64,000 bases of DNA from NCBI GenBank assembly GCA_965215265.1, contig OZ244048.1, positions 2,141,743-2,205,742 of the forward strand, written 5' to 3'. The position numbers and the translations under genes are program-made. Positions 46,259 to 64,000 of the stretch are shown in pieces; position 1 is the stretch's first letter, and the number at the start of each line of letters is the position of its first letter. The DNA comes from Candidatus Poribacteria bacterium. GTDB taxonomy: Bacteria; Poribacteria; WGA-4E; WGA-3G. The notes beneath the pieces are model-generated. The model worked only from the letters and a program-made list of their open reading frames with translations, ran no database searches and was not told the origin of the DNA.

Positions 46259-47307
46259 AAACTTTAATCACAACGTTAACACACGCACGTGCCGCCCAGA
46301 ACAGCCTCGCATATCTGAGCCTATTCGCGATTATTGTGACACTACCCCTATTCTATGCATGCGGCGACAAAGCCATCGGAGCAGACGGAACTGTCATTGC
46401 TGAATTTGAATGGAACGGGAAGCACAAAATCACACTCGAAGAGATGATGCAGGAAATTAGTGAGCTCCCTGAATACAAACAACGCAAATATCAGGACAAA
46501 GAGGGACTCGAAACCTACATGCTCCTCATGGCAGAGAGCCGGCTCATCCTCAACCTCGCACGCGATATGCAACTCCAAGAAGATCCCGAAATCCTCAAAA
46601 AGGTTCAGGACTATCTTCATGAGCTAATGGTAAAGAAAATTACCACCCAGGAAGTTGATGACAAACTCTCTTTGAGTGAAGCGGATTATATCAGCTATTA
46701 CGAGGCACATAAGCAAGACTACATCCGTCCAGCACAAGTCCGACTCCTATGTATCACCCTGCTCAACAAGGAGCGCGCTGAGGAAGTCTTCGCGGAAATC
46801 AACGCAGGCAAAGACATCGCTGAAGCTGCACAGGAACTCTCCGATAGAGGCGAGCTCGTCGGACCAGGCGCAAACCCCGCAGCACCCGGCGATACCGACT
46901 ACATTGGTAGAAGCGCCTTTCCATCAGGCACAGAACCTTTCTTGGATGCAGCATTCTCCGCTGAAATCGGAACATTCCACGACAAGATAGTTGAAGTTGA
47001 CGTGCAAGGACAGAAATACTACATGATCTTCCGAAAAGACGAAGCACGCGATGAATACCAAAAACCTTTTGAGGAAGAAGATGTACGCAAAAATGTCGTC
47101 CGAAAGGCTGAACGCGAAAAACGACAAGCACTCATGAAAGAGTGGATCGCCAGCCTCAGGGAACGCGCTGAAGTCATCACATACATTGACCGCATCCCTG
47201 AAGCACAAAACGAAGAAGCACCTGCCGAAACCGAACCTGAGGCACAACCCGAACAAACGCCTGAGGCACAACCCGAACAAACGCCTGAGGACAATCAACC
47301 TGAATAA
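46255..47307 (+). CDS. second SurA-like paralog (degenerate PpiC) with a C-terminal 24-bp x2 PEAQPEQT repeat
   Basis: …AEFEWNGKHKITLEEMMQEISELPEY… parallels the previous gene. 4-nt overlap implies an operon. Tandem repeat at 47239-47286. Confidence 0.55.
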   Translation: MKTLITTLTHARAAQNSLAYLSLFAIIVTLPLFYACGDKAIGADGTVIAEFEWNGKHKITLEEMMQEISELPEYKQRKYQDKEGLETYMLLMAESRLILNLARDMQLQEDPEILKKVQDYLHELMVKKITTQEVDDKLSLSEADYISYYEAHKQDYIRPAQVRLLCITLLNKERAEEVFAEINAGKDIAEAAQELSDRGELVGPGANPAAPGDTDYIGRSAFPSGTEPFLDAAFSAEIGTFHDKIVEVDVQGQKYYMIFRKDEARDEYQKPFEEEDVRKNVVRKAEREKRQALMKEWIASLRERAEVITYIDRIPEAQNEEAPAETEPEAQPEQTPEAQPEQTPEDNQPE

Positions 47308-47325
47308 CCAATTTTGATTACCACA

Positions 47326-47406
47326 GCAGCCTAAATCGGCTCTGACGAGATTTGTATAGGTATTATGAAAGCAGCAGCCTTTTATAGTACTTCAGGAGAC
47401 AAAAAG
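47326..47406 (+). repeat. repeat family B, copy B2
   Basis: Near-identical to B1. Followed by a 15-bp perfect hairpin. Confidence 0.8.
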
Positions 47407-47408
47407 TT

Positions 47409-47451
47409 GTAAAGTGTCTAAAGTTACTACACAAGACTTTAGACACTTTAC
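47409..47451 (+). terminator. 15-bp perfect-stem hairpin after surA-like gene 2 (gtaaagtgtctaaag-N13-ctttagacactttac)
   Basis: Perfect inverted repeat with no U-tract. Confidence 0.4.
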
Positions 47452-47496
47452 AGCCCTTTAAACTTGAAGGAACCACGTTATGCTATGCCTAATGCG

Positions 47497-47565
47497 TCTC
47501 CGACGAGATTTACACTGTCATTAACAAAGCATAAAGCGTGATGGTACGGAGATATACAAAACACC
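47497..47565 (+). repeat. repeat family B-related element F1 (ctccgacgagattta…gatggtacggagatatac), abutting the surA start
   Basis: Shares both modules with F2 at 54847-54935. Confidence 0.7.
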
Positions 47566-48849
47566 ATGAAATGCAAAATCGGGGCTTATCTCTTGCTAAC
47601 TCTGATGTTTATCAGCACGGGGACAGCACGCACTTTTGACACCATCATCGCCTACGTCAACGATGATGTCATTACACAACGCGAACTTGATACCTTAGTC
47701 AAACAACGCGCCATGGAACTCCAACAGATGTACCGTTTCACTGAACGAGAGGCACTTCAGGAAGCCGAGCGGCAACGCCCAGAACTCCTTGATAGGCTCA
47801 TCCGCCAAATGCTCCTCCTTGAAGCAGCACTCACCTTGAAAGTCAACGTGACATCTGTAGAAGTTGAACAATACATCCAAGACTTTAAAAAGAGATACCA
47901 GATTAAGACAGATGAGGAACTTCAAAAACAGTTGAATCGCGAAGGACTCACCCTCATCGGGTTTCGGGAACAGACAGAACGCAACCTCAAAGCAGAGAAG
48001 TTAGTCATGGGCAGAATTATACCACGACTCCAGATTCGCGACAGTGAAGTCCAAAAATTTTTTGAAGAGAATCGGGACCAACTCCCAACTAAATCAGATA
48101 AGGTCCGATTCCGGCACATCTTTGTCGCTTTCAAACCGACGCAGACGGAACGTGACACCGCACTGCATAAAATTCACACCGCACGAAACGACATCGAAAA
48201 AGAACCAGCGCAGTTTGAACGCATCGCACGGCAAGAAATCGACGACTCCAACAACTCTCAAGTCGGCATACTCATAGAAGCTAGCCCCGAAGAGCTCAAA
48301 GAGTTCCCCGAAAACTTTCAAAATGCGCTAACCAATCTCAACGCTGGTGAATTTAGTGAACCCATCCAAGGAAACGAAGGGCTCTATCTCTTCAAAGTAG
48401 AAACAAAAACTGACACGCTCATCGCGTTTCGCTATCTCATCGTTCCGATTAAGTTGACTGAAGAAGCGAAACTTGAAGCACGGCTGCACGCCGCCAAAAT
48501 TTTTACAAAATTGGAGGAAGGACAACACTTCAACACCCTCGCCGCTGAACATTCCGACGATACGGAAACACGCGAAGACGGCGGCGACCTTGGCGTCCGC
48601 TCCCTGATTGAAATCAATCCAAAAACACGCAGAATCGTTGAAGCCCTCGAAGAAGGGACTTACAGTCAACCTTTTGAAACCGATTCCGGAATCCACATTT
48701 TTAAACTAGATGAACGAAATACACCCGAACTGAGCGAGGCCGAGAAAAAGCAGATTATCTCTATACTCCGCCAGCAGCGCTTTCAGGAAGAATGGGATGC
48801 ATATACCGATAGCCTCCTCGAAAACGCTTACGTCAAAATAAAACCGTAG
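47566..48849 (+). CDS. surA: periplasmic chaperone/peptidyl-prolyl isomerase SurA (two parvulin domains)
   Basis: Signal peptide. SurA_N (…IIAYVNDDVITQRELD…) and two PpiC-type domains. Confidence 0.75.
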   Translation: MKCKIGAYLLLTLMFISTGTARTFDTIIAYVNDDVITQRELDTLVKQRAMELQQMYRFTEREALQEAERQRPELLDRLIRQMLLLEAALTLKVNVTSVEVEQYIQDFKKRYQIKTDEELQKQLNREGLTLIGFREQTERNLKAEKLVMGRIIPRLQIRDSEVQKFFEENRDQLPTKSDKVRFRHIFVAFKPTQTERDTALHKIHTARNDIEKEPAQFERIARQEIDDSNNSQVGILIEASPEELKEFPENFQNALTNLNAGEFSEPIQGNEGLYLFKVETKTDTLIAFRYLIVPIKLTEEAKLEARLHAAKIFTKLEEGQHFNTLAAEHSDDTETREDGGDLGVRSLIEINPKTRRIVEALEEGTYSQPFETDSGIHIFKLDERNTPELSEAEKKQIISILRQQRFQEEWDAYTDSLLENAYVKIKP

Positions 48850-48938
48850 AAGCAATCTCCAACTCGCTACGCCTTTTCCACAATGAAAAAATACACACCT
48901 TTTTTTCATCCTGTTTCTCCTCAGGAGGGGGACGCACT

Positions 48939-51900
48939 TTGAACTTTCAAGACGCGCCGGCAAGCGGCGAACGAAAACCTAAATTTTGGGACACTTGCGC
49001 AGCTGCCATAATCGCACTACTCGCAATCCCGTACCTCCACTCTCCGGCAGCACCCGCGCATCCCGCTCTTAACGCACGGCTCATCGCTCAAACACCCCCG
49101 CCGGAACAGACAGAGACACCCACTGAGCCCCAAGAAGAAACAGACGAAAAAGAAAATGCCCCTACATTCAATCCAGAGCAGGAGACACCTGACTCCGGGT
49201 TTGTCATCGGCGACGGAGACGAGATGGTGATGCACGAGAATCTCGTACAAATCCATGGAAACGCTCTCGTCAAATTTGGGGATATCACTTTGCGGGCAGA
49301 CCACGTCTGGGCCGATTTCACCGAAAACGTCAATTTAATCCGCGCATCCGGGAACGTACATCTCATCACCGGCGACGAGGAGACATTCTCTGATGAACTC
49401 GTCTTTAACCTCGAAACCAAAAAGGGCATCGCACGAAACGGCTTTACCTACAGCGACCCCTGGTACTTCGGCGGGAGTGAAATCTTTAAAATTGAAGATA
49501 AGACATCTTACGTCCGAAGTGCTAGCTTGACAACCTGTTCCCTCAAATATCCACACTACTATTTTAGCGTCTCACGCGTTATCATACGAGTCAACGACGA
49601 GCTCATCGCCAAAAATATCATACTCCGCATCGGAGGCTTCCCACTCTTCTATTTTCCAGCCATCCGACGCGATCTGCAGAAGGGAAAAATCGCTAAAATT
49701 ATTGTCAAAGTCGGAACCGATAGCTACCAAGGCCCTTATATCAGTATCATTCAACCTGTCGCACGCAAAAGACGCTACGATGGCGCACTCCTCTACGATA
49801 GAAGTGCACGCAGAGGACACGGCTTCGGGCTTGAAACAAAATATCGATTCAATGATACACAATTCCAAGAAATTTATATCCCTATTCCACCCGACCTAAC
49901 CGCCGCGCAACGCTCAAAATTGGAGGATAAAGCCAAAGAGATACGCGAACGGCTCGAAGGCAAATACAACCGATATTGGCTAAAGCAAATTTTCCTACCT
50001 TATGAAATTACGGATGCTGACTTCAAACGCGCGAAAGAGAACGCTGAAGAACTGCATAATCAACTTGTCCAAGAAAACGCAGATTTCGCACAACTCGCAC
50101 AGCAGCATTCTAGCCACGAAACTCGATACGAAGGGGGCGACTTAGGGTTCATCACATTCGGAGAACTGATTGAGGACACAGAAAAATCAACGCCTGCCTC
50201 TAAAAACACAGATAAAAATACCGAAACACCGCAAACCCAATCCGGATCAGAAGACGCAGCACAAACAGACGACGATACGCCGCAATCCGATGATAAACCA
50301 CCACAAACAGACGACGATGCACCGCAATCCGATGATGAACCACCACAAACAGACGACGATACGCCGCAATCCGATGATGAACCACCACAAACAGACGACG
50401 ATACGCCGCAATCCGGATCAGAAGACGCAGTGCAGCCCATTGGGACACCCAAACTCGACCCGATTTTAGAAACAGCAGCATTTCAACTAGAGGAAGGCCA
50501 AATCAGTCAGGTTTTAAAGACTGAATCCGCTTTTCACATCCTCAAAATCGAACGGGCCCTTGATGTATACGGAGAACGCGAAATACAGGTCCGACGGATT
50601 GATATTAACATTGAACCCAGCGACGAAACACGGCAGAAAATACGCGAAACCGCAAATCAAATTTATCAACGTGCACACGAAGGCGAACCCTTGGAAAAAC
50701 TTGCCGAAGAATTCGACGAAGCCGCTTTATCAGAAATCAACCAAGGCAAAGGACTCCCACTCAATCAAATGGAGTCCGGATGGCAATATTCTGTCAGAAG
50801 GTTAGAGAAGCCCGGCGAAATCATACAACGCCGGCCAGTTTCCGCACCAGAGGGGTTATACATCTTCCAATTAATTAAAAAAGAAGAGACTCCCTCCTTT
50901 GAACAACTCGCTCAAGAATTTGAATTGGAATGGGAAACCTTCCAACAAGAGGTCATGCGTTCAACCGAAGAAGAGAAACAGGAAAACGCAGAAAAAAACC
51001 AAACAGCCGCAGCTGCCGAACCTCTACAAGCTAAAAGTATAGCACCGCAACAAAAGAAAAAAACAGAAGAAAAAAACGGAACACCTACACAACTAGACGA
51101 GCAGCCGGACGCGGAGAGTGAGAACACAACCCAAGAAGAAGATGAAGAAGATGAAGAAGATGAAGCAGCAGCAGCAGAGCAGGGTGTCTATCGAAAACAC
51201 GGATTTCGCGGACAGTGGGAAGATCCCCGCATGGTCGCAGCCGAAGCACGCAGTTTGTACACCGGCGAATTCAGTCGTGTCGTAAAAACAAAAAAAGCGA
51301 TCCGCCTTATTAAGGTCGATCGAAAACGCACTTACCGCGGGGATTTCTACTTCTACGGCAAAGATGCATACTCCTTCGACAGGCAGAACGCAACTCGTAT
51401 CGGCAGAACATGGATATCCCGATGGGGACACACGCAAGCTATCTATACACCCTGGGATAATCGCCAAGAAGGACGCCGCCCTATCAACTTTACCGGACGC
51501 CTCGAATGGCGCGCCCGAAACTACAAAGAAGAACTCCGACTCCCCGGAGAATCCACACTCAAATCGTTTGGACTCCTTAACTACGGCTCCGCATTCACCA
51601 CATGGTCTACTCAAGATGTCGATGAAAACAATAATCTCAAATTCTCAATGGAAACTATCGGAGATTTCGCAGGACGACTCGAAATCCGACATATCTATGA
51701 TTTCACCCAACAAGGCACTACATCTTTACAAAAACTCCCACAACTCTCCTTAAACTTTTCACGGATGCGGTTTAGCCAACTGCCTCTCTTTCGAACCATT
51801 AACTCCGGGTTAGTCTACCTCTCCGAAAAAGCCCAAAGCGACAAACCTTTTCTCTCACTACTCTCTGTACCAACATTAGATAACACCAGCTTCGATCTGG

Positions 51901-53012
51901 ACATGGAATTCGGAAATTTCTTTAGACAAATCTATAAAGGCAAAAACGAGGAAGAGAGAGATGTCTTCCTGCAGACGCTTGACTTCGGTTTTGACCTGCG
52001 CAAACAGGCAACCTTACTCATTACCCCGCTGCGCGAATTGGTAACCAACATCAATCTGAATACAAACTTTATCTGGCACGACCGGGACCAGGACAAAAAC
52101 AGGAACATTATCCGCGGCGTTTATAGTTTCAACGGCTCCGCCACAAATACACTCTTCCGTGTCTACAATATTAGTTTCATCCCACGGGCACGTAAACTAC
52201 GGCACGAGATGCAATCATCACTCCGGTTTGATTACCAACCCCCTGTTGATCGGAACGATAATCTCTATCCCTTCGGCCCCAGCACCTATTTCTACGAACG
52301 GAAAAGGATCGTCTATAACTTCAACACGAACATCGAAATTAAGACACAGCGCAGCCAATCCCCACATCGTATCTTCCATTTTGACACCCGACTCACTGCC
52401 GACTTTACCAAATTCGACCCGCTAAACAGACGCAAATATGAACCGATCGAGAGTGATTTCACTATCATACCGCTCCCCAATCGCAGCCTGAACATGACCG
52501 TCCGACTCACCCACGACCCCAATCCACACCCAGAGGACGGTACCATGTTCAAAGTTGTCGGAATCCGTTCCAACATCCGATACACACGACAGAAGTGGAA
52601 TGTCAGCATCGGAAACTCCTTTAGCAAACGGCACACCGCCATTCGAGCATCACGCTCCATCACCGCCAATGGCAGATACCGATTTAACGAGAACCTCGAT
52701 TTCGATTTCAACCTCATCTTTTATCCGATCGACAGGGACTTCTACTCACAACGCATTAGTATCAATCGGAACTTACACGATTGGAACTTGCGCGTCTCTT
52801 GGAGCCGCATCGGCATTAAACGCGGGCCGCCACCCCATAACAACGTCCGACAAGATTTCACTTTTCAGATTAGCTTAATTCCAGAACCAGCAGTCTCAAT
52901 GGGCATCGGCTACGATGCCACTACCGAAACATGGGGACTCCGTACCTTACCCGCCGGCGCACCTTACAACGCTTTCGGGGTAGGAAATGCACTCGGACGT
53001 TCTTACTTCTAA
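48939..53012 (+). CDS. LptD/OstA-like outer-membrane protein (1357 aa) carrying an embedded parvulin (PpiC) domain split by acidic PQ[ST]DD tandem repeats
   Basis: RBS AGGAGGGGG plus TTG. N-terminal LptA/OstA-type beta-jellyroll (…FGDITLRADHVWADFTENVNLIRASGNVHLITGDEE…). PpiC signature …ADFAQLAQQHS….GGDLGFITFGEL – [repeat insert] – AAFQLEEGQISQVLKTESAFHILKI. Long C-terminal beta-rich region ending …GRSYF-stop. Confidence 0.55.
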   Translation: MNFQDAPASGERKPKFWDTCAAAIIALLAIPYLHSPAAPAHPALNARLIAQTPPPEQTETPTEPQEETDEKENAPTFNPEQETPDSGFVIGDGDEMVMHENLVQIHGNALVKFGDITLRADHVWADFTENVNLIRASGNVHLITGDEETFSDELVFNLETKKGIARNGFTYSDPWYFGGSEIFKIEDKTSYVRSASLTTCSLKYPHYYFSVSRVIIRVNDELIAKNIILRIGGFPLFYFPAIRRDLQKGKIAKIIVKVGTDSYQGPYISIIQPVARKRRYDGALLYDRSARRGHGFGLETKYRFNDTQFQEIYIPIPPDLTAAQRSKLEDKAKEIRERLEGKYNRYWLKQIFLPYEITDADFKRAKENAEELHNQLVQENADFAQLAQQHSSHETRYEGGDLGFITFGELIEDTEKSTPASKNTDKNTETPQTQSGSEDAAQTDDDTPQSDDKPPQTDDDAPQSDDEPPQTDDDTPQSDDEPPQTDDDTPQSGSEDAVQPIGTPKLDPILETAAFQLEEGQISQVLKTESAFHILKIERALDVYGEREIQVRRIDINIEPSDETRQKIRETANQIYQRAHEGEPLEKLAEEFDEAALSEINQGKGLPLNQMESGWQYSVRRLEKPGEIIQRRPVSAPEGLYIFQLIKKEETPSFEQLAQEFELEWETFQQEVMRSTEEEKQENAEKNQTAAAAEPLQAKSIAPQQKKKTEEKNGTPTQLDEQPDAESENTTQEEDEEDEEDEAAAAEQGVYRKHGFRGQWEDPRMVAAEARSLYTGEFSRVVKTKKAIRLIKVDRKRTYRGDFYFYGKDAYSFDRQNATRIGRTWISRWGHTQAIYTPWDNRQEGRRPINFTGRLEWRARNYKEELRLPGESTLKSFGLLNYGSAFTTWSTQDVDENNNLKFSMETIGDFAGRLEIRHIYDFTQQGTTSLQKLPQLSLNFSRMRFSQLPLFRTINSGLVYLSEKAQSDKPFLSLLSVPTLDNTSFDLDMEFGNFFRQIYKGKNEEERDVFLQTLDFGFDLRKQATLLITPLRELVTNINLNTNFIWHDRDQDKNRNIIRGVYSFNGSATNTLFRVYNISFIPRARKLRHEMQSSLRFDYQPPVDRNDNLYPFGPSTYFYERKRIVYNFNTNIEIKTQRSQSPHRIFHFDTRLTADFTKFDPLNRRKYEPIESDFTIIPLPNRSLNMTVRLTHDPNPHPEDGTMFKVVGIRSNIRYTRQKWNVSIGNSFSKRHTAIRASRSITANGRYRFNENLDFDFNLIFYPIDRDFYSQRISINRNLHDWNLRVSWSRIGIKRGPPPHNNVRQDFTFQISLIPEPAVSMGIGYDATTETWGLRTLPAGAPYNAFGVGNALGRSYF
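50268..50417 (+). repeat. in-frame 42-bp tandem repeat x ~3.5 (DDD[AT]PQSDD[EK]PPQT) inside the LptD-like CDS
   Basis: Units at 50268, 50310, 50352 and a partial one at 50394. It is flanked by a longer direct repeat (…caatccggatcagaagacgcag…). A 9-bp x3 EED repeat lies at ~51131. Confidence 0.85.
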
Positions 53013-53820: not shown

Positions 53821-54546
53821 TTAGTCTGCTTCAACATCCACAAGTAGCTCACGTCCATTCAACGGTTGCACCGGACGACTATTGCCCTGCATAATCGTTT
53901 CAAATGCCAAAATTTGCGATTCAGACATTTCAATAGGTGTCGTTATTATGAACCATTTGACCCCTTCCGAACACGGCGGAGTCGTTAACGAACCCTCGTA
54001 ACGATAGGTATGCCTCGTGCTTGGCAACAGTTCGTCGGCATTGACGGTAACACTCTCAATGCTGCGCATCTCGCCCGATACGGATGGCAAATTGCTCCAG
54101 ATTGAAGCAAACGTCGGATTATCACTTCCACGTTCTATTAACACACCAACCACAGCCAACGTTCCATCCTCACTTTGGTGAACGTAGTGCATCTCCATGT
54201 CAAACGCTCTACCGGCTACTGTATGTTCACCGGGGGCGTGGAAGTGGAATTGTTGCAATTCATACCTTGTGCCATCAACCTCAATCCAACTCCCTTCATT
54301 GTATGCAACTTGAATAGTATGTCCAGTATTGCGAATGTTCAAAACCGTTGGCTGGTATTTGAAAGTCATCGCTGGAAGTTCAACAGCTATCGGGTTCACC
54401 AAATCAATCGGCGATTGGTGTATCCCCACAGCACAAATGGCATACTCCGGATTTAATTGCCCCCAGATGTTTGGACCATTTTCTTCTGTATAACCCCACT
54501 CTACTGTGTGGGATTCACTAACTAATTCTTCGTGTATGATATCCAT
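53821..54546 (-). CDS. alpha-class carbonic anhydrase (apparently without a signal peptide)
   Basis: QSPIDL, HFHAPGEHTV…MEMHYVH and the SLTTPPCSEGVKWF zinc-ligand/active-site blocks. Confidence 0.85.
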   Translation of the reverse strand: MDIIHEELVSESHTVEWGYTEENGPNIWGQLNPEYAICAVGIHQSPIDLVNPIAVELPAMTFKYQPTVLNIRNTGHTIQVAYNEGSWIEVDGTRYELQQFHFHAPGEHTVAGRAFDMEMHYVHQSEDGTLAVVGVLIERGSDNPTFASIWSNLPSVSGEMRSIESVTVNADELLPSTRHTYRYEGSLTTPPCSEGVKWFIITTPIEMSESQILAFETIMQGNSRPVQPLNGRELLVDVEAD

Positions 54547-56091: not shown

Positions 56092-57375
56092 CTATATCGC
56101 AAACGTCTTTTCATCGTCAAGCAGCATCAACGCAAACCAGGTTTTGATATCGGCACGCCCGGGCGCGAGTTTGTTGAGCATCCTCGCCATCATTTGCTTA
56201 TGTTGCTCAGTGGTAGGTCCCATCTCAGTCATATGCTGGTTATATGTCTCAATCTCCGCCGCTTGCTTGGGATAGTTTTCCGTGAGCCATGCCTCAACAT
56301 CGGCATCGGTTGGCATGTTCTTCAGTGCCGCTGCAAAATCCGTCGCGGAGATACCGAGAAAAGCGAGGGTTGCCCGGTCAATACCGGAATCTTCCCCGTA
56401 AAAATAGGCGCCCAATGTGTCTCCATTTACAGCCCGTGCTTTGTCAATCAATCGTGCGAGTTGAACCATTCCATAGACATCTGTATTGTAAGGGCTCCGT
56501 GGTGCGCGCCGTTGGAGATCTACGATTCCGAAACAGAGCTGATCGTCTATGTCTTGGAGTGCGACCCACGTGTCAATGTCCGTGCGGTCTGGAGCAACTT
56601 CACGGCATCGTGCTTCAAAGCGTTGGCGCGTGTTTTCATTGGGACCATAGTTTATCAACGTCTGATTGAAGGTATCGATTTCCGCGGATGATTTACCTGA
56701 GTTTTCCAGTACCCATGTGCCCAATTCGAGGTCGTTCGGGTTGTTCACTGCTGCTGCCTGAAAATCATCAGCTGAGATTCCGAGAGTTTCTAATATGCGT
56801 ATGTCTTGCCCGGAATCTTTGCCGTATTTATACTCTCCGATTTTTCCTGCGCGTGCGGCGCGTGCTTTATCGGCCATCCGTGCAACGCCACAAATGCCGC
56901 CAACATCTTTTGCCCGTGCGCTGCGGGGCGGCCGCACGGTGAGGTCTACCTGCCAAAAACTGCCCCAGTCATCAAGTTCCATAGATTGAAGCACCGTTTT
57001 AATATCGGTTCGCCCTGGGGCATACCGCGCGAGTCGTTCTTTTAGCCGCTGCTTGTGCCCTTCCGTATCTGGATTATGATTAATCGCGTCCTCGTTAAAA
57101 GCATCAATTTCTGCTGCGGTTTTTCCACTCGTTTCAAGCACCCAGTCTGCAAGTGCTTCATCGTCATGTTCTGCAACGGCTTCGGCGAAAGTGTCGGCTG
57201 AGATACCGAGGAACTGTAGGACGCGCAGGTCCAACCCTGAGTTTTCCCCGTACACATATTCCGCGAGAGTTTCGGCATTAGATGCACGTGCTTTGTCAGT
57301 CATTCGTGCTAAGCCAACAATCCCTGAAACGCCAAGATTCGTTGGCCGGCGTGGAGGTTGACGTGTTAAATCCAT
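56092..57375 (-). CDS. protein built of three tandem ~142-aa homologous repeats of unknown function
   Basis: Each repeat reads …P[PR]RS…G[IM]V.LARM.DKARA…G.Y.YG..SG.D…L.FLGISA..F…W..EN…AEI..FN…GP….RQ…AR…APGR.DI.TW…DD…. Confidence 0.6.
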   Translation of the reverse strand: MDLTRQPPRRPTNLGVSGIVGLARMTDKARASNAETLAEYVYGENSGLDLRVLQFLGISADTFAEAVAEHDDEALADWVLETSGKTAAEIDAFNEDAINHNPDTEGHKQRLKERLARYAPGRTDIKTVLQSMELDDWGSFWQVDLTVRPPRSARAKDVGGICGVARMADKARAARAGKIGEYKYGKDSGQDIRILETLGISADDFQAAAVNNPNDLELGTWVLENSGKSSAEIDTFNQTLINYGPNENTRQRFEARCREVAPDRTDIDTWVALQDIDDQLCFGIVDLQRRAPRSPYNTDVYGMVQLARLIDKARAVNGDTLGAYFYGEDSGIDRATLAFLGISATDFAAALKNMPTDADVEAWLTENYPKQAAEIETYNQHMTEMGPTTEQHKQMMARMLNKLAPGRADIKTWFALMLLDDEKTFAI

Positions 57376-57543: not shown

Positions 57544-58998
57544 TTATTTCAATGGATGCAGGTTGACTTCAGCGGCGAGTCGCCCTTCTAAACGAAACCA
57601 AACCTGCAAACCGTTTTGTGTCAGATAAAGTGCCTCTGGTGCAACAGTATCGACGGTACCGCGCAAGATTACATACGAACCGAGCTTGCGTTTTTCTATC
57701 GCGCCTGATAACGTTTCATGTAATTGCGTGAGTTGTTGTTCTAGTGGAAAAACCAGTTTTTCTTCTACTGTCGTTCGGAGGTCAGGAAAGAAGCCTTCGC
57801 CCACGTCCTCCGCGATACTCAACAGCAGACTTTGGGTTGTGAGCGAATAGTCAAATTCGGTGACAGCGACCGTCATCTCGGTTGCATTATACACAGGTGT
57901 CCCGAGGAGATACAGTTTGCCCTTCGCGTTAAAGGTTGGCATCCCAAACGTCACACCTGCGACTAACTGCGTACCGCTACCGTAGAGAGTTAGGTTTCCA
58001 ACCTGTGTCTCAATACCCTTTAACTTATGCGTTTTTTCAACATAAGGCTTAGCAAGTTGTTGAATCGCCGTATAAGCGACCTCAACCGGGGCGATAATAT
58101 GATACCCTGATTCAAGCGAGTCAACAAAACGGAGGTCTGGTAGTGGTGGAATCGGTGCAGCTTCCACCGTCTCTCCAATACGTACGTGAATATGTGTTTT
58201 TATTCCTAGGTGGATAGAGAGCGTATCCACATCTCCAGAAAGTTGCTGCGTGAGAATCTCTAACGGTTGTATCACAAGAACTATAGGCGGTTCGTCTCTG
58301 ATAACAATCGGTTCATGGAGTTTCTCCCATAACCCGGCAACGCGACTTTTCAGATTCACACGGGTGATATGTGTCACAATGAGCTCTTCTAATTTAGGTA
58401 CAACTTTGTCTTCAACCAATTTAGTGAGGAGGCTCCGAATTGAGATAGTGATACCTACAATTTTAATATCTGCCCGCTGAATTGATATGTCAAGGCTGCT
58501 TTGAGCAGTAATTCTCCAATCAGGATTGAACATAAACCGAAGGTTTAACGTTGCGGCGGCTGCGCCATCAAAATCTTCTCGCTTCCGGATTACTTTCCGA
58601 AAGACCGTTTTAGAGACTTCCGCCCAACCGCTAAATTGAAACGGCATTTGTATCGAGATGGTGTCATCAGGCATCCTAGTCATCAGCATCGGACCTGGAT
58701 TTAGCTGAATGGACGATTCAATCGATCCATCTTTCCGTTGAATGGGCTTATGCAGATAGTCCTGCAAAGCGGATTCAACGAGTGGTTTAACATCCTGTAT
58801 CGGTAATTCCGCTTTAACAGCAAGCGTTGACGGTATCGGCGGTGGTAACGGTCTCAGTGTCACTTCTCTCGGTGGTGCGGGCGCGTTTACGATTCGGTCA
58901 GAACCGCTGAAAAGGGTAAGGAACAACACAACGCAAATGAGGACGGCCCCCAGCACAATCCCAATAATTATCTTGACGCGTTTCGTTAGTGCTTTCAT
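57544..58998 (-). CDS. hypothetical N-terminally membrane-anchored protein
   Basis: Start chosen at MKALTKRVKIIIGIVLGAVLICVVLFLTLF (TM), which avoids a 53-nt overlap with the upstream gene. 484 aa. Confidence 0.45.
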   Translation of the reverse strand: MKALTKRVKIIIGIVLGAVLICVVLFLTLFSGSDRIVNAPAPPREVTLRPLPPPIPSTLAVKAELPIQDVKPLVESALQDYLHKPIQRKDGSIESSIQLNPGPMLMTRMPDDTISIQMPFQFSGWAEVSKTVFRKVIRKREDFDGAAAATLNLRFMFNPDWRITAQSSLDISIQRADIKIVGITISIRSLLTKLVEDKVVPKLEELIVTHITRVNLKSRVAGLWEKLHEPIVIRDEPPIVLVIQPLEILTQQLSGDVDTLSIHLGIKTHIHVRIGETVEAAPIPPLPDLRFVDSLESGYHIIAPVEVAYTAIQQLAKPYVEKTHKLKGIETQVGNLTLYGSGTQLVAGVTFGMPTFNAKGKLYLLGTPVYNATEMTVAVTEFDYSLTTQSLLLSIAEDVGEGFFPDLRTTVEEKLVFPLEQQLTQLHETLSGAIEKRKLGSYVILRGTVDTVAPEALYLTQNGLQVWFRLEGRLAAEVNLHPLK

Positions 58999-59017
58999 AG
59001 CAATTCTCAAATTAAGG

Positions 59018-60160
59018 CTAACCCGAGTCCTGTCCAGAAAACCGATTGATAGAAAAATGGCTGATGTCAAAAGCGGTCTCGTCTGTAGATGCCAATTCGC
59101 TCAAGATACGTCCGACAAGCGCGCAAAATTTGAATCCGTGCCCTGAAAAACCTGCCGCAATTAAGACATCAGCACAGTCCGGGTGTACATCAATGATAAA
59201 ATCTTCGTCGGGTGTTTGTGTATAGAGACACACTTCCGCTTTAACAGTGGTACCAAGGCTCGGAAAACGTTCTTGCACATAAGCATCCAGATGTTGGATG
59301 TAGTCAGCATCGGCATCCCGATTGCATGTATTAGGTGAGACGGTTTGCCCTTTTCCGTCTCTCGCCACCTTTACACCGTTTTCCCCGAAAGCGGGGATAC
59401 CGTAAAAAAAATCACCTTCTGCGGTTGTCTCTGTGAAAACAGGGAACTGTTTTGGTTGGAACAGTGGCTGAGCCGTGGGTTGGTAGTAGCAGACCTGTTG
59501 GCGTGTAACAGTGAGCGGCAGTTTGAGTTCAGCAAGGAGAGCTGCTGTCCATGCGCCGGCTGTCACAATGAGTTTTTTGCCACGAAACGTCCCTGCTTCA
59601 GTCTCTACGCTCGGTACATCAGCATCCGTTAGGATTCGGGTTACCGGAATGTCTTCTCGGATTTCGGCACCGTGATGTGCAGCTAATTGCAAGTGGGTTG
59701 AAACGCAGTGAGCAGCGTGAAGAAAACCGGTATCCTTTTGCCAGAGGATGTGCATATCCTTTGACACGTGAAATTGCGGAAAACGGCGCGCTAACTGTGG
59801 TGCCTCCCACCACTCTGATTCAACACCGGCAGCATCCAAACTTGCACGCACCGACCTTCCATACGGATTGTCTTCAATACCGAGGTTGATACTTCCGGTA
59901 ATAGACAGCAACGAGTTACCTGAGGCAGCTTCTAATGCGCGCCATTCTGCATAGGCAGATTTCATTAATTCAGTGTAGAACGGCTTATCGTAGAACAGCC
60001 GGATAATCCGGGTTTCGCCATGCGAACTGCCGAACGCATGTCCACGATGGAATTGTTCCAAGGCAAGGACGTTCGCGCCAGATTTCGAAAGGTGGTAAGC
60101 TGTCGCGCTACCCATCCCGCCAACACCGATGACAATGGCATCATAAATATGAGTTTGCAT
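59018..60160 (-). CDS. FAD-dependent amine oxidase of the sarcosine / N-methyltryptophan oxidase (MSOX/DAO) family
   Basis: N-terminal Rossmann motif YDAIVIGVGGMGSATAYHL. 380 aa, typical of monomeric sarcosine oxidase-like enzymes. A Cys near the C-terminus (…GHGFKFCALVG…) lies where covalent FAD attaches in MSOX. Confidence 0.6.
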   Translation of the reverse strand: MQTHIYDAIVIGVGGMGSATAYHLSKSGANVLALEQFHRGHAFGSSHGETRIIRLFYDKPFYTELMKSAYAEWRALEAASGNSLLSITGSINLGIEDNPYGRSVRASLDAAGVESEWWEAPQLARRFPQFHVSKDMHILWQKDTGFLHAAHCVSTHLQLAAHHGAEIREDIPVTRILTDADVPSVETEAGTFRGKKLIVTAGAWTAALLAELKLPLTVTRQQVCYYQPTAQPLFQPKQFPVFTETTAEGDFFYGIPAFGENGVKVARDGKGQTVSPNTCNRDADADYIQHLDAYVQERFPSLGTTVKAEVCLYTQTPDEDFIIDVHPDCADVLIAAGFSGHGFKFCALVGRILSELASTDETAFDISHFSINRFSGQDSG

Positions 60161-60926
60161 GTGATTCCTCTTGTGAACCGAATGGGGGTTGCACCGTGGT
60201 AAAATTCTTATACAGGTCCTTACCGCGCAGGAGTATGGGCTTCCAGGGCCGTTTCAATGAATTCTCTTCGGCTTGCCGCACCGATGGCGGGATGTAGCGA
60301 ATCGTCAGTCCACAACGTCGACGGGTGGAGTGATTGGGAAGGCTGCCGTGAATTATCTGGCCATGGTGAATAGACATCTCCCCGGCTTTAAGCACCAAAT
60401 CGACGGCTGAGTCGGCCGCCTCCGTCGTGACAGAGACCTCCTGATTGATACTTAGTAGGTTCCCCGCCTGTTTCGATTTACCATGTGCCTGAATCCCCTG
60501 CTGATGGCTGCCAGGGATAACCTGCATGCATCCGTTCCCGGTGTCGCTGTCATCTACCGCGTACCAAGCGGTTATTGCCTCTGGTGGCTCAAGTCCCCAA
60601 TAGGTAACGTCTTGATGCCATGCGACAAATTTCTCGCGCGGGCCATATTTGCAGAAGAAGTGGGTGGCTAACAACATCACATCGGGCCCGATAATTTCTT
60701 CAATCACATCCACAATTTTCGGATGGGTTGCAAGTCCCCATATAAATTGATGCTCAAAATGCCAATCAACAAGTCCGATTTCGCATTTGTCTGCGCCGAC
60801 TTCGGCCTCCAACGCATTGTAAGCATCTTGATATCGTAGTGCTTCGGTTTCATCTGCAACGTGGATACCGGTTAAAAATCCATCCTTCCGGTACCGATTA
60901 GCCAGTTGTCCATTTGTCGTTTCCAT
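60141..60926 (-). CDS. second phytanoyl-CoA dioxygenase (PhyH)-family oxygenase
   Basis: RBS AAGGAGG before ATG 60926. …WHQD…PGSHQQG…IHHGQIIHGSLPN…R… 2OG-oxygenase pattern. Overlaps the FAD oxidase gene by 20 nt (operon). Confidence 0.55.
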   Translation of the reverse strand: METTNGQLANRYRKDGFLTGIHVADETEALRYQDAYNALEAEVGADKCEIGLVDWHFEHQFIWGLATHPKIVDVIEEIIGPDVMLLATHFFCKYGPREKFVAWHQDVTYWGLEPPEAITAWYAVDDSDTGNGCMQVIPGSHQQGIQAHGKSKQAGNLLSINQEVSVTTEAADSAVDLVLKAGEMSIHHGQIIHGSLPNHSTRRRCGLTIRYIPPSVRQAEENSLKRPWKPILLRGKDLYKNFTTVQPPFGSQEESHANSYL

Positions 60927-61330
60927 GTAATGTCCTCCTTTACCATTTTGTAACGCGTGCCGATATCTGTTATCAGAGTTTAGCAAAAAACACACAATTT
61001 GTCCAGTTTAAAATAGTGTTATTGAATGAAGTTGTTTACAACCACCCGCTGCATGTTTCTCTGAACCGTAGCGGATGGAGCCACAAGCACTTGCCTATCC
61101 TTAAAATTCTGATAGAGACAGTTTAGTTCTCCGCTAAGAACGAAGGCTAAATTGCTAGACTCCCCTATAGGAGGGCTTGACATCCTTCGCAAATCTGAGA
61201 GAGAGAATGTTGAAAACTAAATGCCCCTAAAATCTTGACAAATTCGCTTTTTTGTGTTACACTAAAAAAAAGCACTAACGTGAACAGATACTACCGTTTA
61301 TTTTTCAGACATCAACTTAGGAAGTTTACT

Positions 61331-61882
61331 ATGCTTATTACCATGCCGAAGACGTTTTTTTTCTATGGGGTGTTTATGCTTTGTGTCTTGTTTTCTGCTT
61401 GTGTAGAAGAGACACAAGTTGATGAATTTGTTGAAAATGCCCAGCAGGAAAAGGTCCCTGAGGAACCTGCAGCCACCTTGCCTGGCCTTCCGCTAGATGT
61501 CGCTGGCTACACAAAGTGGCTCAAACTGAACGCGGAACCTATTCCTCCTGTTGCTGGGGGTGACCCGCATAACGGGACAAAAAATGTGTACGTCAACCAA
61601 ACGCGAGAAAAACTCACAGCAAATGGTGAGCAGCAGTTCCCTTACCCCGAAGGCAGCATCGTTGTCAAAGAAGCGTCCCGTCCTAATAAGTCGTATGTTG
61701 GACTTATCGCTATTATGCGAAAGGTAGCCGGCACAGACCCGGCGCACAACGACTGGGAGTTCATTGAGTATACGCGAAATGCGCCGGATGCGGATTTCCG
61801 CGTCATTGCCTCTGGTGGAATCTGTTGGGGATGTCACGCCCGGGTTAAAGAGAGTGACTATGTTTTTACGCTACTTGATTAA
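61331..61882 (+). CDS. cytochrome P460-family mono-heme protein (lipoprotein-type signal)
   Basis: RBS AGGAAG. …NVYVNQ…FPYPEGSIVVKE…NDWEFIEY… and a C-terminal CWGCH heme motif followed by …DYVFT. Confidence 0.6.
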   Translation: MLITMPKTFFFYGVFMLCVLFSACVEETQVDEFVENAQQEKVPEEPAATLPGLPLDVAGYTKWLKLNAEPIPPVAGGDPHNGTKNVYVNQTREKLTANGEQQFPYPEGSIVVKEASRPNKSYVGLIAIMRKVAGTDPAHNDWEFIEYTRNAPDADFRVIASGGICWGCHARVKESDYVFTLLD

Positions 61883-61894
61883 AGGAGAGAATTT

Positions 61895-63130
61895 TTGTCG
61901 ACAGTTTACAATAGATTGATGACATTCATATTGAATTATGAAAAATGCGGCACATTTTTCAGAGCTGCTTCACTTCTCATCGCTATGGTTTCGATATGTC
62001 TTGTTGTGCCTGAGGCGACTGAGGCACGTCCGGAATTTGCAGCCGAATTAGAAAAAGAATGTAACTTTTGCCATATTGACCCGGCCGGCGGGGGTCCGCG
62101 AAACCGTATCGGAGAAATTTTTGAGGATAATTATTTTGAATTCCCTGAAGATTTTGACATGGAAGCCGTAATGGAGGAAGCAAAAGAAATTGTCAAACAA
62201 CTCACAACCTCTCTTGATTTGCAAACCGCTTTTATCAAGAGCATGCATGTGGACGAAGCCGAAAACACGGTTGCCGGATGTAATTCGTGTCACTCTTCAA
62301 TTGATAGATTTCTCCTGATGCAAGCAGAGGTGACGTTCAATGCACAGGCCTCCGAACACGTACGGCTAACCCTTTCTAATAACGTTGGAACGACACTCAA
62401 TGCATTTGCCACTGTAGATGCTATTCCAAAGCATCTCTACGTCAAGGTAGGACAATTCCGCTTACCTTTCGGTATTAAGCAAAAGGACCACAATATCCTT
62501 GTCCGCGAGGGTTATGGGCTCGGTTCTAACAAACGCAATGTCGGCGTAGAGCTTGGGGGTAGCCTTGGAAGAGTTTTTTACAATGCTGCCTTTTTTAATG
62601 CGAAGAATGCAACAGCCTCCGGCACACTAGGAACCGTTGGCGGGCAAATCGGTCCGATTCGAGCAGGTGTTTCTGGCAGAGTTGACCGGAACACTGAGGA
62701 ATGGGAACGCCTCATCGGCTTATTTATGACAACCTCCTATGCAGGCCTGAGCTTAGAAGGGGAGTTCAATTTGGGGAATACTGGTGTACTCAATGACAGT
62801 TCAGTCATATCACCTTACATCGCTGCTTTGACACCGGATGCTGTTGATTCAAAAGGCTACTATGTCGGGGCAAAATACCGTATCCATCCCCAATTGAGTG
62901 TTGCCTGCCGCTACGGGCTGTTTGATCCGGATAGAACTATCAAGGGCGACGCAGCCAGACGTGTAACGCTCAGTGGGCATTACAATTTTATGGAAAACGG
63001 GGCAATTTCACTCTTCTATTGGTCAAACTTGGCAAATCCTGACCGGGGTACGTCACACCGTAATACCGGCATGTCCCGGCAGCTGCAAGGCACAGATCAG
63101 GTGATTGTAATGTCACGATTCTGGTTTTAA
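61895..63130 (+). CDS. di-heme c-type cytochrome fused to a porin-like outer-membrane beta-barrel (Cyc2-like architecture)
   Basis: RBS AAGGAG plus TTG. Signal peptide. CNFCH and CNSCH heme motifs in the first 135 aa. Then ~275 aa of amphipathic beta-strand pattern ending …VMSRFWF-stop. Confidence 0.5.
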   Translation: MSTVYNRLMTFILNYEKCGTFFRAASLLIAMVSICLVVPEATEARPEFAAELEKECNFCHIDPAGGGPRNRIGEIFEDNYFEFPEDFDMEAVMEEAKEIVKQLTTSLDLQTAFIKSMHVDEAENTVAGCNSCHSSIDRFLLMQAEVTFNAQASEHVRLTLSNNVGTTLNAFATVDAIPKHLYVKVGQFRLPFGIKQKDHNILVREGYGLGSNKRNVGVELGGSLGRVFYNAAFFNAKNATASGTLGTVGGQIGPIRAGVSGRVDRNTEEWERLIGLFMTTSYAGLSLEGEFNLGNTGVLNDSSVISPYIAALTPDAVDSKGYYVGAKYRIHPQLSVACRYGLFDPDRTIKGDAARRVTLSGHYNFMENGAISLFYWSNLANPDRGTSHRNTGMSRQLQGTDQVIVMSRFWF

Positions 63131-63168: not shown

Positions 63169-64000
63169 GTGATACCTCAATTCTCAAAACGTTTTCTCAT
63201 AGGGATTATCGGTTTCCTCGTGCTCATCATTATTGTAGGTATTTTCTACATTGTGCGCACCCAGGTGGGTGCGAGAATCAACTACAGTGTCAAAACGTTC
63301 ACTCCTCAAGATGAGGTCCCGCAATGGGTAGATTTCTCAATTACCTTGTCGGAACCTGTGATTGATAATTTTCAAATGGGTTCTGAAGTGCCGCAGGACG
63401 CTATCCAATTCACCCCTGCCATTGACGGGAAAGCGCAGTGGATAGCCCTCGATAGAGTTGATTTCTTTTTAGAGAGTGCGTTGGCCCCTTCGACTCAGTA
63501 CACGGTGGAGCTGACCTCCAAATTGAGTCCATCTAGTGTTTTTATGTTGACGGGGCGGCGCACTTTTAAATTTGCGACGCAACGTTTTGCTGTGGTTGAA
63601 ACCGCTATTGAATTCAAGTATGACAAGGCGCGGCAGAATGCTAAAGCGGTCGGCAGCATTTCTTTCAACTATCCGATAAATATAGCCGATTTAAAGGCAC
63701 ATCTTTCTGTACAACATGACGATGGGACGGAAATCCCGTATCAAATCCTGCCTGGTGCCTCAACGGAAACGCGTATGGTGAAACTGGAAACCGTCCAAAT
63801 CCCGCGCGAACTTGAAGATCAGTTAATTAAGATAAAGATAGAAAAAGGGTTCAAATGTATTGGGGCGCAGCTCGGGCTCAAAGCTGCCAGCATTACGCCG
63901 ATAATCCTGAACGGTAGTGGTACACTGGGTGTTACGTACTGTAATGTCACAGAGAGGGCGGGTAACCCGTATTTCGCGCTCCGATTTAGCACGCCGATCA
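63169..64000 (+). CDS. hypothetical membrane-anchored protein, 3'-truncated by the window end
   Basis: RBS GGAGGA plus GTG. N-terminal TM FLIGIIGFLVLIIIVGIFYIV. The ORF is open to the end of the window. Confidence 0.4.
   Translation, partial: MIPQFSKRFLIGIIGFLVLIIIVGIFYIVRTQVGARINYSVKTFTPQDEVPQWVDFSITLSEPVIDNFQMGSEVPQDAIQFTPAIDGKAQWIALDRVDFFLESALAPSTQYTVELTSKLSPSSVFMLTGRRTFKFATQRFAVVETAIEFKYDKARQNAKAVGSISFNYPINIADLKAHLSVQHDDGTEIPYQILPGASTETRMVKLETVQIPRELEDQLIKIKIEKGFKCIGAQLGLKAASITPIILNGSGTLGVTYCNVTERAGNPYFALRFSTPI

Follow-up and report, generated by a model that had tools for sequence, protein, structure and literature searches.

Microbial iron oxidation is inferred from genomes mainly by using Cyc2 as the marker. 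Cyc2 is an outer-membrane iron oxidase whose electrons go to periplasmic cytochromes (PMC8406198, PMC5566968), and it was defined by a signal peptide, a single N-terminal CxxCH and a 16-strand barrel of the OprP/OprO type (Keffer et al. 2021, PMC8406198). Its signature consists of AxPxFAR[Q/K][T/Y] before the CxxCH and PxL 4 residues after it (PMC8406198). In the MtrAB/MtrCAB, MtoAB and PioAB systems, hemes also run through an outer-membrane barrel and electrons are moved across the membrane, with a separate decaheme protein threaded in a 26-strand barrel.

The characterised P460 and c'-beta proteins are, to our knowledge, soluble. A heme-Lys cross-link defines the cytochromes P460, and the position of Phe61 in c'-beta corresponds to Lys70 in N. 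europaea P460 (NeP460), Lys78 in M. capsulatus P460 (McP460) and Lys106 in NsP460 (PMC11928373, Table 2). The carboxylate for NH2OH oxidation is Glu96 in NeP460 and Asp102 in McP460, and the P460 of Nitrosomonas sp. AL212 (NsP460), which has Ala131, binds NH2OH and does not oxidise it (PMC11928373). A 2025 review of the P460/c'-beta superfamily mentions neither porins nor lipoproteins (PMC11928373). In the literature, we found no paper in which Poribacteria and cytochrome P460 appear together, and no description of a two-heme Cyc2-like protein.

A P460-porin gene pair in Poribacteria

We analysed a 64,000-nucleotide stretch of DNA from a Candidatus Poribacteria bacterium, referred to here as the window. 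The open reading frame calls agreed with the original prediction on the places of two neighbouring genes on the + strand. ORF A (61331-61882, +; 183 aa) encodes a putative lipoprotein with the cytochrome P460/c'-beta fold, as indicated by Pfam and PDB matches, and ORF B (61895-63130, +; 411 aa) encodes a two-heme fused cytochrome-porin that belongs, distantly, to the Cyc2 superfamily. The two genes are 12 bp apart, and ORF B starts with a TTG codon located 7 nt 3' of AGGAG. A sigma-70-like promoter candidate, identified by consensus match only (TTGACA, a 17 nt spacer and TACACT, with TG; 61235-61263, +), lies ~70 nt 5' of ORF A and was the region's best site with 10/12 matches. ORF A and ORF B probably form an operon.

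A P460 gene was found upstream of the porin gene, on the same strand, in 74 of the 80 Poribacteria species genomes, including this one, and it is well supported that the two genes are a unit found across Poribacteria. A profile search with a narrower ORF B alignment returned loci that were all from Poribacteria. In this genome, the genes farther upstream depart from the usual FtsY context, and the P460-porin pair is kept. However, adjacency alone is weak evidence for a module, because FtsY (near the pair in 57/80 Poribacteria loci) and an alpha-2-macroglobulin (A2M) gene (3' of the porin in 76/80) are also syntenic in the phylum, and the P460-porin adjacency may partly reflect general conservation of gene order.

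This gene-order conservation fits an explanation in which ORF A and ORF B are independent and their adjacency is inherited; ORF A would then be a periplasmic protective protein that binds NO or NH2OH, and ORF B a diffusion pore whose hemes are structural, sensing or local antioxidant. The pairing is indeed missing in some Poribacteria, as a subclade (L074, L078, L082 and L083) keeps the porin with no adjacent P460, and in all relatives examined outside the phylum. Among the more distant two-heme relatives, P0121, P0128, P0139 and members of clusters P0122 and P0123 lack a P460 next to the porin gene, and stand-alone soluble c'-beta and P460 proteins are known (PMC11928373). On the other hand, the pair here is intact although its farther-upstream context has changed, the gap is as short as stated above, and ORF A differs from the characterised soluble proteins in its invariant lipobox Cys; anchoring in the membrane would suit a protein whose partner is there. 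Independence is also hard to reconcile with the heme sites that are invariant across the ORF B family and the cytochrome neighbours of its relatives (see below), and we consider it unlikely. Note that no P460 homologue was found in 133 other loci examined (~926 kb), which rules out P460-Cyc2 pairing as a general rule.

Relationship of ORF B to Cyc2

We compared the ORF B family with 73 metagenomic proteins picked by the published Cyc2 motif alone. By hhalign, the family matched these Cyc2-signature proteins over the full length with 99.4% probability (E 1e-21, 367 columns), and the cytochrome domain alone and the barrel alone gave 98.4% and 97.1%, respectively, while a control with reversed barrel gave 1.3%. 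The Cyc2-like fused cytochrome-porin architecture that had been proposed for ORF B is thus accompanied by homology, and these alignments give good support for distant homology between ORF B and the Cyc2 fused cytochrome-porins. Like A. ferrooxidans Cyc2, Mariprofundus Cyc2PV-1 and Leptospirillum Cyt572, ORF B has a signal peptide, an N-terminal c-heme domain and a 16-strand OprP/OprO-type barrel; its heme domain opens with A-x-P-x-F-A, and the CxxCH comes three residues after the nine-residue motif.

The published signature was, however, not found in ORF B. In its ARPEFAAEL, the residues A, P, F and A agree with the Cyc2 motif, whereas R, [QK] and [TY] do not (FAAEL, with family consensus FAART, versus FAR[QK][TY]), and PxFAR was present in none of 110 family representatives. 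After heme motif 1, ORF B reads H-I-D-P-A-G-G-G-P-R-N (family consensus H-V-N-P-x-G-G-G-x-R-N), so that DPAGGGPRN stands in place of PxL. Furthermore, ORF B has two heme motifs, whereas all of the 73 Cyc2-signature proteins and most of the ORF B family have a single CxxCH, in line with the earlier view that two hemes are unusual. Given this failure of the Cyc2 signature, ORF B belongs to a large unannotated sister family, and neither "Cyc2" nor "iron oxidase" fits it as a name. The sister family, which was detected by neither Pfam, NCBIfam nor the published motif filter, is found mainly in Myxococcota, Ignavibacteria and candidate phyla, in addition to Poribacteria; a tblastn search of plasmids with a single-heme relative gave no match. 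ORF B is a previously undescribed two-heme relative of Cyc2.

Like Cyc2, the relatives of ORF B cluster with periplasmic cytochromes. A diheme cytochrome c gene was located immediately downstream in 3/3 loci of the Myxococcota/"Deltaproteobacteria" relatives, a five-heme cytochrome neighbour was also found among relatives in other phyla, and the gene of the two-heme relative P0128 is directly followed by a Rieske plus cytochrome b/c pair. Together with the invariant heme sites of the family, these cytochrome neighbours argue for electron transfer.

The homology to Cyc2 raises the question of whether ORF B oxidises soluble Fe(II) or another small extracellular reductant in the manner of Cyc2, with electrons that would feed the respiratory chain, for energy or metal detoxification, and with the P460 as an unrelated or minor acceptor. 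The full-length match to Cyc2-signature proteins, the Cyc2-like barrel and N-terminal heme domain, and the respiratory genes next to P0128 are consistent with this, and a FeGenie survey lists cyc2 in a free-living Poribacteria genome (PMC12482716). However, both AxPxFAR[QK][TY] and PxL are missing from ORF B, and iron oxidation is not known from the Myxococcota, Ignavibacteria and candidate phyla in which the family mainly occurs. ORF B has a P460 as its partner gene, instead of Cyc1 or rusticyanin, and neither a Cyc1-like cytochrome nor a cupredoxin was found nearby in the window as a canonical periplasmic acceptor. In addition, ORF B comes from a sponge symbiont and not from a known iron oxidiser, the Poribacteria loci are mostly from sponge- or coral-associated genomes as judged by record titles, and we know of no obvious Fe(II) supply in the sponge or coral habitat. 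Such a Cyc2-type oxidase seems unlikely to us.

Heme sites and barrel of ORF B

The signal peptide of ORF B, as read from the sequence, comprises residues 1-44 (61895-62026, +) with the hydrophobic core AASLLIAMVSICLVV. Cleavage would occur after T-E-A and before R-P-E-F-A, and the A-x-P-x-F-A motif directly after the hydrophobic leader is conserved in the family and in Cyc2-type proteins. Conservation and the structural model place the N-terminal cytochrome domain at residues 45-100 (62027-62194, +), which carries the family signature ARPEFAAEL-EKE-CNFCH-IDPAGGGPRN and includes heme motif 1, CNFCH (residues 56-60; 62060-62074, +). In this domain, C56, C59 and H60 were invariant in 106/106 family sequences, and P46, G65-G67 and R69 were at least 92% conserved.

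Heme motif 2, CNSCH (residues 129-133; 62279-62293, +), is located in loop L1 of the barrel. Exactly two CxxCH motifs, with a spacing of 73-77 residues, were found in 120/120 orthologue clusters (69-100% identity), so that a lack of conservation in orthologues, which had been named as an outcome against the original prediction, was not seen. The four Cys of these motifs are the sole Cys of the mature protein in most orthologues. Chance occurrence was ruled out by shuffling the residues of ORF B, since none of 200,000 shuffles had two or more CxxCH and 0.22% had at least one. The second CxxCH is restricted to Poribacteria and a few relatives (P0121, P0122, P0123, P0128, P0133 and P0139), and the majority of the family is single-heme without it. 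M142 and H199, each conserved in 84% of the 106 family sequences, may serve as axial heme ligands; M142 and the pair D198-H199 are specific to the family and distinguish ORF B from Cyc2.

In an AlphaFold2 model of ORF B, residues 103-410 (62201-63124, +) form a 16-strand beta-barrel, which is followed by the C-terminal Phe411 (the C-terminus reads ...SRFWF); the Cyc2 barrel likewise ends in an aromatic residue. The model had a mean pLDDT of 87.1 and a pTM of 0.82, with pLDDT 88-92 in the cytochrome domain, and was built on a 106-sequence family alignment, while 20 near-identical orthologues alone gave pLDDT 39. The two CxxCH motifs and Phe-terminated porin-like barrel originally read from ORF B were therefore borne out, and its C-terminal region, for which a soluble fold had been set beforehand as the refuting outcome, was modelled as a barrel. 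Periplasmic turns of 2-4 residues alternate with loops, of which L1, L3, L6 and L8 are 20-26 residues long. The best Foldseek matches were 16-strand general porins (E 6e-13 to 1e-9), and the matches included VhChiP, OmpU/OmpT, Omp32, OprP (2o4v) and OprO (4rjw). PDB sequence searches with ORF B profiles returned nothing useful; the one weak match, 6qvm "multiheme cytochrome cf", covers only the leader and the first heme motif, and the match to Pfam MtrC/MtrF was insignificant (E 0.16).

Loop L1 (residues 118-137; 62246-62305, +) lies between strands 1 and 2 in the predicted topology, and its pLDDT was only 62-73. This loop, and heme motif 2 with it, is predicted to be on the extracellular side; the side of heme 2 and the heme-heme distance are read from the strand and loop order only. 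Loop L3 (residues 189-214; 62459-62536, +) has a short helix in the model, is at the position of the porin constriction loop and carries the family-conserved D198-H199. We know of no other barrel that carries a heme on an extracellular loop. ORF B also differs from MtrAB/MtrCAB, MtoAB and PioAB, as it is one polypeptide with 16 strands and two hemes, and its strand number together with hemes on the same chain rules it out as an MtrB/PioB-type partner porin.

The P460 protein ORF A

The P460 assignment made for ORF A in the original prediction held, with a match to Pfam PF16694 Cytochrome_P460 (E 7.7e-13; 49.4 bits against a cut-off of 27) and a Lys at the cross-link position. The PDB sequence matches were M. 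capsulatus cytochrome c'-beta (McCP-beta, 6hih; E 1.4e-6), Thermus c'-beta (TtCP-beta, 7ead) and P460 (6hiu), the closest solved sequences being c'-beta proteins (E 1e-6) and not P460s (1e-2). Fold and heme site are also like those of c'-beta. The heme motif C165-W-G-C-H169, read from the sequence near the C-terminus as in P460s (61823-61837, +), has C165, C168 and H169 invariant in 78/78 orthologues.

Lys113 (61667-61669, +) is at the position of the heme-Lys cross-link, and was likewise invariant in 78/78 orthologues. It aligned with Phe61 of both McCP-beta and TtCP-beta, a placement made by alignment to low-similarity proteins (E ~1e-6) on which the two templates agreed, and these alignments give good support to a position of Lys113 from which the heme-lysine cross-link of P460s could form. 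This Lys rules out ORF A as a c'-beta protein, in which the position is Phe, Met or Leu (PMC11928373). At the position of the distal carboxylate, which was not found in ORF A, there is Ala127, invariant in 78/78 orthologues and aligned with Gly82 of McCP-beta and Ala131 of NsP460; ORF A resembles in this respect the P460 that binds NH2OH without oxidation. His80, invariant in 78 orthologues, occupies the "capping" position, where known P460 and c'-beta proteins have Phe or Arg (PMC11928373).

Unlike the known P460s, ORF A appears to be a lipoprotein and is encoded beside a cytochrome-porin. Orthologue conservation marks Cys24 (61400-61402, +) as the lipobox cysteine (L-F-S-A-C), which was invariant in 78/78 orthologues with [AS] at -1, mostly T/S/A at -2 and mostly F/L/I at -3, and from which lipidation is inferred. 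A tether of ~35 residues, acidic and Pro-rich, follows Cys24.

The downstream alpha-2-macroglobulin gene

The 5' part of an A2M-type gene, recognised by a Big_5 match, follows ORF B and runs off the window (63169-64000, +). Five full-length orthologues were read (~1,820-1,870 aa) and have bMG/A2M domains, and PBP1C comes after A2M in the loci read that far. We regard the A2M gene primarily as a syntenic neighbour of the pair. It is conceivable that P460, cytochrome-porin, A2M and PBP1C act together as a single unit that defends the envelope against the host, in which the heme proteins would remove host NO or peroxide at the surface, A2M would trap proteases and PBP1C would repair the wall. All four products are periplasmic or outer-membrane, the 76 loci with A2M after the porin include the P460-less subclade, and in the window ORF B and A2M are 38 bp apart with no terminator-like site between them. 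However, the gap before A2M is ~300 bp or more in other genomes, and in many bacteria A2M and PBP1C are known as a pair that stands by itself. Such a defence unit seems to us very improbable.

Proposed function of the pair

The two genes had first been read as an outer-membrane redox module that would serve extracellular electron transfer or the handling of N-oxides, and this is plausible from the sequences. On the side of such a module are the tight phylum-wide adjacency and the cytochrome or respiratory genes beside relatives from other phyla; on the other side are the syntenic flanks, the P460-less subclade and the lack of the carboxylate in ORF A.

Our best reading, to which we assign a probability of roughly 0.45, is a module for electron transfer at the outer membrane, with a periplasmic partner of the P460 type and NO/NH2OH chemistry at the P460 heme; the substrate may be N-oxides or Fe(II). 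ORF B probably moves electrons across the outer membrane, and it is well supported that it is a Sec-exported protein with two covalent c-type heme sites and the fold of a 16-strand outer-membrane barrel. Likewise well supported is that heme 1, in the conserved N-terminal domain, is located at the periplasmic mouth of the barrel or inside it and is ancestral and common to the whole family, and that heme 2 on loop L1 is a later addition at the predicted outer rim. The two porin hemes could then make a short electron path through the outer membrane, between an extracellular small redox partner and the periplasm. The tethered P460 heme, ligand-binding with an open coordination site, would be the periplasmic end-point, where NO or NH2OH may be bound, oxidised or reduced, with electrons exchanged via the porin. 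Against an electron-exchange role of the P460, hemes of this type rest at very low potentials and are therefore poorly suited as simple electron shuttles.

A more specific version, which we hold to be improbable, has a two-heme wire in one barrel, with one heme on the extracellular loop and the other in the lumen or at the periplasmic mouth, and a tethered P460, so that periplasmic NO/NH2OH chemistry would be coupled to external redox partners. In sponge symbionts, such partners might be the host matrix or neighbouring nitrifiers. If true, no smaller electron conduit across the outer membrane would be known.

For the family, the second heme that the Poribacteria proteins carry on what is predicted to be the outer face hints at a way in which pores with one heme could evolve toward true trans-membrane wires, and in the P460/c'-beta superfamily a lipoprotein P460 paired with a porin is a new arrangement. 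Metagenome surveys should be cautious in scoring such genes as "cyc2 = iron oxidation". For the Poribacteria, which are major uncultured sponge symbionts, the pair suggests a link, which can be tested, between electron exchange outside the cell and the chemistry of nitrogen oxides.

Results

The flagged interval is occupied by two genes on the + strand, ORF A (61331-61882; 183 aa), encoding a P460-type lipoprotein, and ORF B (61895-63130; 411 aa), encoding a two-heme cytochrome-porin. ORF B starts with TTG preceded by AGGAG, 12 bp past the stop codon of ORF A, and its product carries CNFCH at residues 56-60 (heme motif 1) and CNSCH at residues 129-133 (heme motif 2) and ends in RFWF. All named close homologues are, like the window itself, from Poribacteria. 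Pfam gave only sub-threshold porin matches (Porin_4, E 5.7e-4), and the NCBIfam search gave no meaningful match. The original prediction of two CxxCH motifs after the leader had been made dependent on their conservation in orthologues; both were kept in 120/120 orthologue clusters (exactly two in each, 73-77 residues apart). When the protein was shuffled 200,000 times, two CxxCH motifs never arose, and a chance origin is excluded.

A model of ORF B from a shallow alignment was uninformative (pLDDT 39). An exhaustive search over 1.84 billion cluster representatives yielded 405 clusters related to ORF B, and the model from a 106-sequence family alignment reached a mean pLDDT of 87.1 and a pTM of 0.82. 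In the model, residues 1-44 form the leader, residues 45-100 (pLDDT about 90) a compact domain at the N-terminus with heme motif 1, and residues 103-410 a set of 16 beta-strands, the strand count proposed as a check of the porin-like barrel thus agreeing with it. Even-to-odd strand connections are 2-4 residues long, matching periplasmic turns, and odd-to-even connections include four long loops (L1, 20; L3, 26, with a short helix; L6, 20; L8, 21 residues), L7 having 9 residues. This alternation is the classical porin pattern, suggesting that the long loops are extracellular. Foldseek likewise matched the model to 16-strand general porins (E 6e-13 to 1e-9), among them OprP and OprO, the modelling templates of the fused cytochrome-porin iron oxidase Cyc2. 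Heme motif 2 lies within L1 (residues 118-137), five residues ahead of strand 2, and is therefore predicted at the outer rim, a placement derived from strand order in a loop of pLDDT 62-73.

We next compared the family with Cyc2. Typical relatives of ORF B have 360-430 aa, a single CxxCH right behind the leader and an aromatic C-terminus, usually with the signature A-L-P-R-F-A-A-R-T-G-x-x-CxxCH-V-N-P-x-G-G-G-x-R-N; Pfam domains and informative names are absent throughout. The members with a named source belong to Myxococcota (Kofleriaceae, Polyangiales), 'Deltaproteobacteria', Ignavibacteria, Krumholzibacteria and Eisenbacteria. Cyc2 is defined by a single CxxCH, preceded by AxPxFAR[Q/K][T/Y] and followed four residues later by PxL, and by 16 predicted strands (Keffer et al., PMC8406198). 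Metagenome contigs were scanned with a back-translated FAR[QK][TY]-gap-CxxCH pattern, most hits having a three-codon gap, which yielded 73 full-length sequences of 395-581 aa that satisfy the whole published signature, PxL included; this set was chosen by motif and may not include biochemically characterised proteins. In profile-profile comparison, the ORF B family matched the set over its full length, from leader to C-terminal aromatic (probability 99.4%, E 1.1e-21, 367 columns), with the cytochrome domain alone without leader (98.4%, E 7.6e-15, 40 columns) and with the barrel alone (97.1%, E 5e-11, 263 columns), whereas the reversed-barrel control gave 1.3% (E 0.04, 61 columns). The family HMM also matched 73/73 of these proteins. 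For ORF B, these results establish two conserved sites of heme attachment, a porin fold with 16 strands and homology to Cyc2. The FAR[QK][TY] test was failed by ORF B (ARPEFAAEL...CNFCH-IDPAGGG) and by 110/110 family representatives. ORF B is thus a member of the Cyc2 superfamily, within a sister family that falls outside the published filter. The predicted Cyc2-type architecture therefore stands as superfamily homology and strand number but not as Cyc2 by the published definition. A plain Cyc2-like Fe(II) oxidase, to which the shared N-terminal heme domain and barrel would point and from which the failed signature departs, is an unlikely reading. Outside the family, residues 3-42 of 6qvm chain A ('multiheme cytochrome cf', ATEQYAKDTGKNCSYCH) matched the family profile with leader and first heme motif (E 9.5e-6), so that the A-x-x-x-[FY]-A-x-x-x-G-x-x-CxxCH start may be a wider-spread N-terminal heme module.

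ORF B differs from Cyc2 in having two CxxCH motifs, as had been foreseen; exactly one was present in 73/73 Cyc2-type proteins. The L1-type second motif was found in all Poribacteria orthologues and six remoter representatives (P0121, P0122, P0123, P0128, P0133 and P0139; 30-48% identity), whereas L1 lacks Cys in the single-heme majority; this motif is therefore a later acquisition of one lineage, added to a protein that ancestrally had one heme. Five other representatives (P0146, P0203, P0220, P0249 and P0255) have another layout, in which both motifs lie in the N-terminal domain at a distance of ~25 residues, suggesting that extra hemes were gained independently more than once. M142 and H199 (in L3), each conserved at 84% family-wide, could be axial ligands, their assignment to either heme being speculation. 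A single-heme Poribacteria paralogue (P0292; 360 aa, L089/L090 6001-7083, 34% identity to ORF B) lies among transposase fragments with no P460 neighbour.

ORF A, with CWGCH at residues 165-169, matched Pfam Cytochrome_P460 (49.4 bits, E 7.7e-13, cut-off 27), in agreement with its predicted family. Its nearest solved sequences are the cytochromes c'-beta of M. capsulatus (McCP-beta; 6hih, E 1.4e-6) and Thermus (7ead), true P460 structures scoring weaker. Diagnostic positions were taken from Table 2 of a 2025 review (PMC11928373) and carried over via c'-beta alignments. At the heme cross-link position (McCP-beta Phe61, equivalent to Lys70, Lys78 and Lys106 of the P460s of N. europaea, M. capsulatus and Nitrosomonas sp. 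AL212, NeP460, McP460 and NsP460; PMC11928373), ORF A has Lys113 as in P460s, whereas c'-beta proteins have Phe or Met. At the proton-relay carboxylate position (Glu96 in NeP460, Asp102 in McP460, Gly82 in McCP-beta), ORF A has Ala127; it thus lacks the side chain on which NH2OH turnover depends in characterised active P460s and shares Ala with the inactive NsP460 (Ala131). The capping position is His80, as opposed to Phe or Arg in known proteins. Lys113, Ala127, His80, the Cys and His of CxxCH, and the lipobox Cys24 were invariant in 78 orthologues. ORF A thus has the P460 fold, a lipoprotein signature and the cross-link Lys, and we predict it to be a P460 with a lipid anchor and a heme cross-linked to Lys.

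Across 80 Poribacteria species genomes, a same-strand P460 orthologue lay upstream of the porin gene in 74; among the six exceptions, two had no usable upstream sequence. This establishes a tight, phylum-wide adjacency. With only 12 bp between them and a promoter-like site upstream (61235-61263), the two genes are probably co-transcribed. A search of 133 further loci (926 kb) surrounding genes of the family or of Cyc2-type proteins found no P460 homologue. That the two proteins function independently, their adjacency being inherited, is improbable, although a subclade (loci L074, L078, L082 and L083) has no P460 beside its two-heme porin gene, which is still accompanied by A2M (alpha-2-macroglobulin). 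The A2M gene, downstream of the porin in 76/80 genomes, is commoner than the P460; in the window it starts 38 bp beyond ORF B (63169-64000, +, running past the end). Five full-length orthologues have about 1,820-1,870 aa with bMG/A2M domains, and PBP1C comes next in loci read that far (e.g. L001 9545-17242). A four-gene envelope-defence unit with A2M-PBP1C would fit this order; we regard it as quite unlikely.

FtsY lies farther upstream in 57/80 genomes. Where most other Poribacteria have this context, the window has a protein of three tandem DUF5069 domains (56092-57375, -; 427 aa, E 6e-84), an adjoining DUF4403 protein (57544-59070), a DAO-family FAD oxidase (59018-60160) and a PhyH dioxygenase (60141-60995); the P460-porin-A2M order is kept despite this alteration. 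Farther upstream, four PPIase/SurA-type genes run from 45191 to 53012 (+), the last (1,357 aa) with rotamase domains and a weak LptD_2-like region, an unusual density of outer-membrane-protein chaperone genes ~9 kb from the porin. A eukaryotic-type (alpha) carbonic anhydrase lies at 53821-54546 (-; E 7e-46).

Outside Poribacteria, a diheme cytochrome c gene (526-580 aa) abuts a single-heme porin gene downstream, overlapping or within ~10 bp, in 3/3 Myxococcota/'Deltaproteobacteria' loci (L088 7214-8956; L094 6215-7795; L095 6312-7919), two of the three products matching CarboxypepD_reg and cytochrome c domains. Nearby are Ser/Thr kinase, PEGA and PccH/PSCyt1-like multiheme genes, and together these genes possibly form a redox cluster that is conserved but so far undescribed. 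A five-heme cytochrome gene lies two genes upstream of P0139, and a Rieske protein and a cytochrome b/c fusion directly downstream of P0128; the remaining contexts were uninformative. These redox neighbours, often seen outside Poribacteria, support an electron-transfer role of the ORF B family and, by analogy, the P460 as the putative periplasmic partner specific to Poribacteria.

Discussion

We propose that heme 1 would sit at or inside the periplasmic mouth of the barrel, as likewise proposed for Cyc2 (PMC8406198), and heme 2 at the outer vestibule; the porin hemes would exchange electrons with the heme of the tethered P460, the predicted binding site for NO or NH2OH. We hold this whole model tentatively, at a probability of roughly 0.45. 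The predicted outer-membrane redox module draws support from the adjacency and the redox neighbours of relatives for electron transfer, whereas Ala127 speaks against its N-oxide part as regards NH2OH oxidation.

Our literature search found no paper joining Poribacteria and P460 and no description of a two-heme Cyc2-like protein, and the 2025 review of P460 and c'-beta mentions neither porins nor lipoproteins (PMC11928373). What is new here is a two-heme, P460-linked branch within an unannotated sister family of Cyc2. Its surprising features are the second heme, predicted to lie on a loop, and the partnership with a P460, the function being deduced from sequence and model, and ORF B-type genes should not be taken as a sign of iron oxidation.
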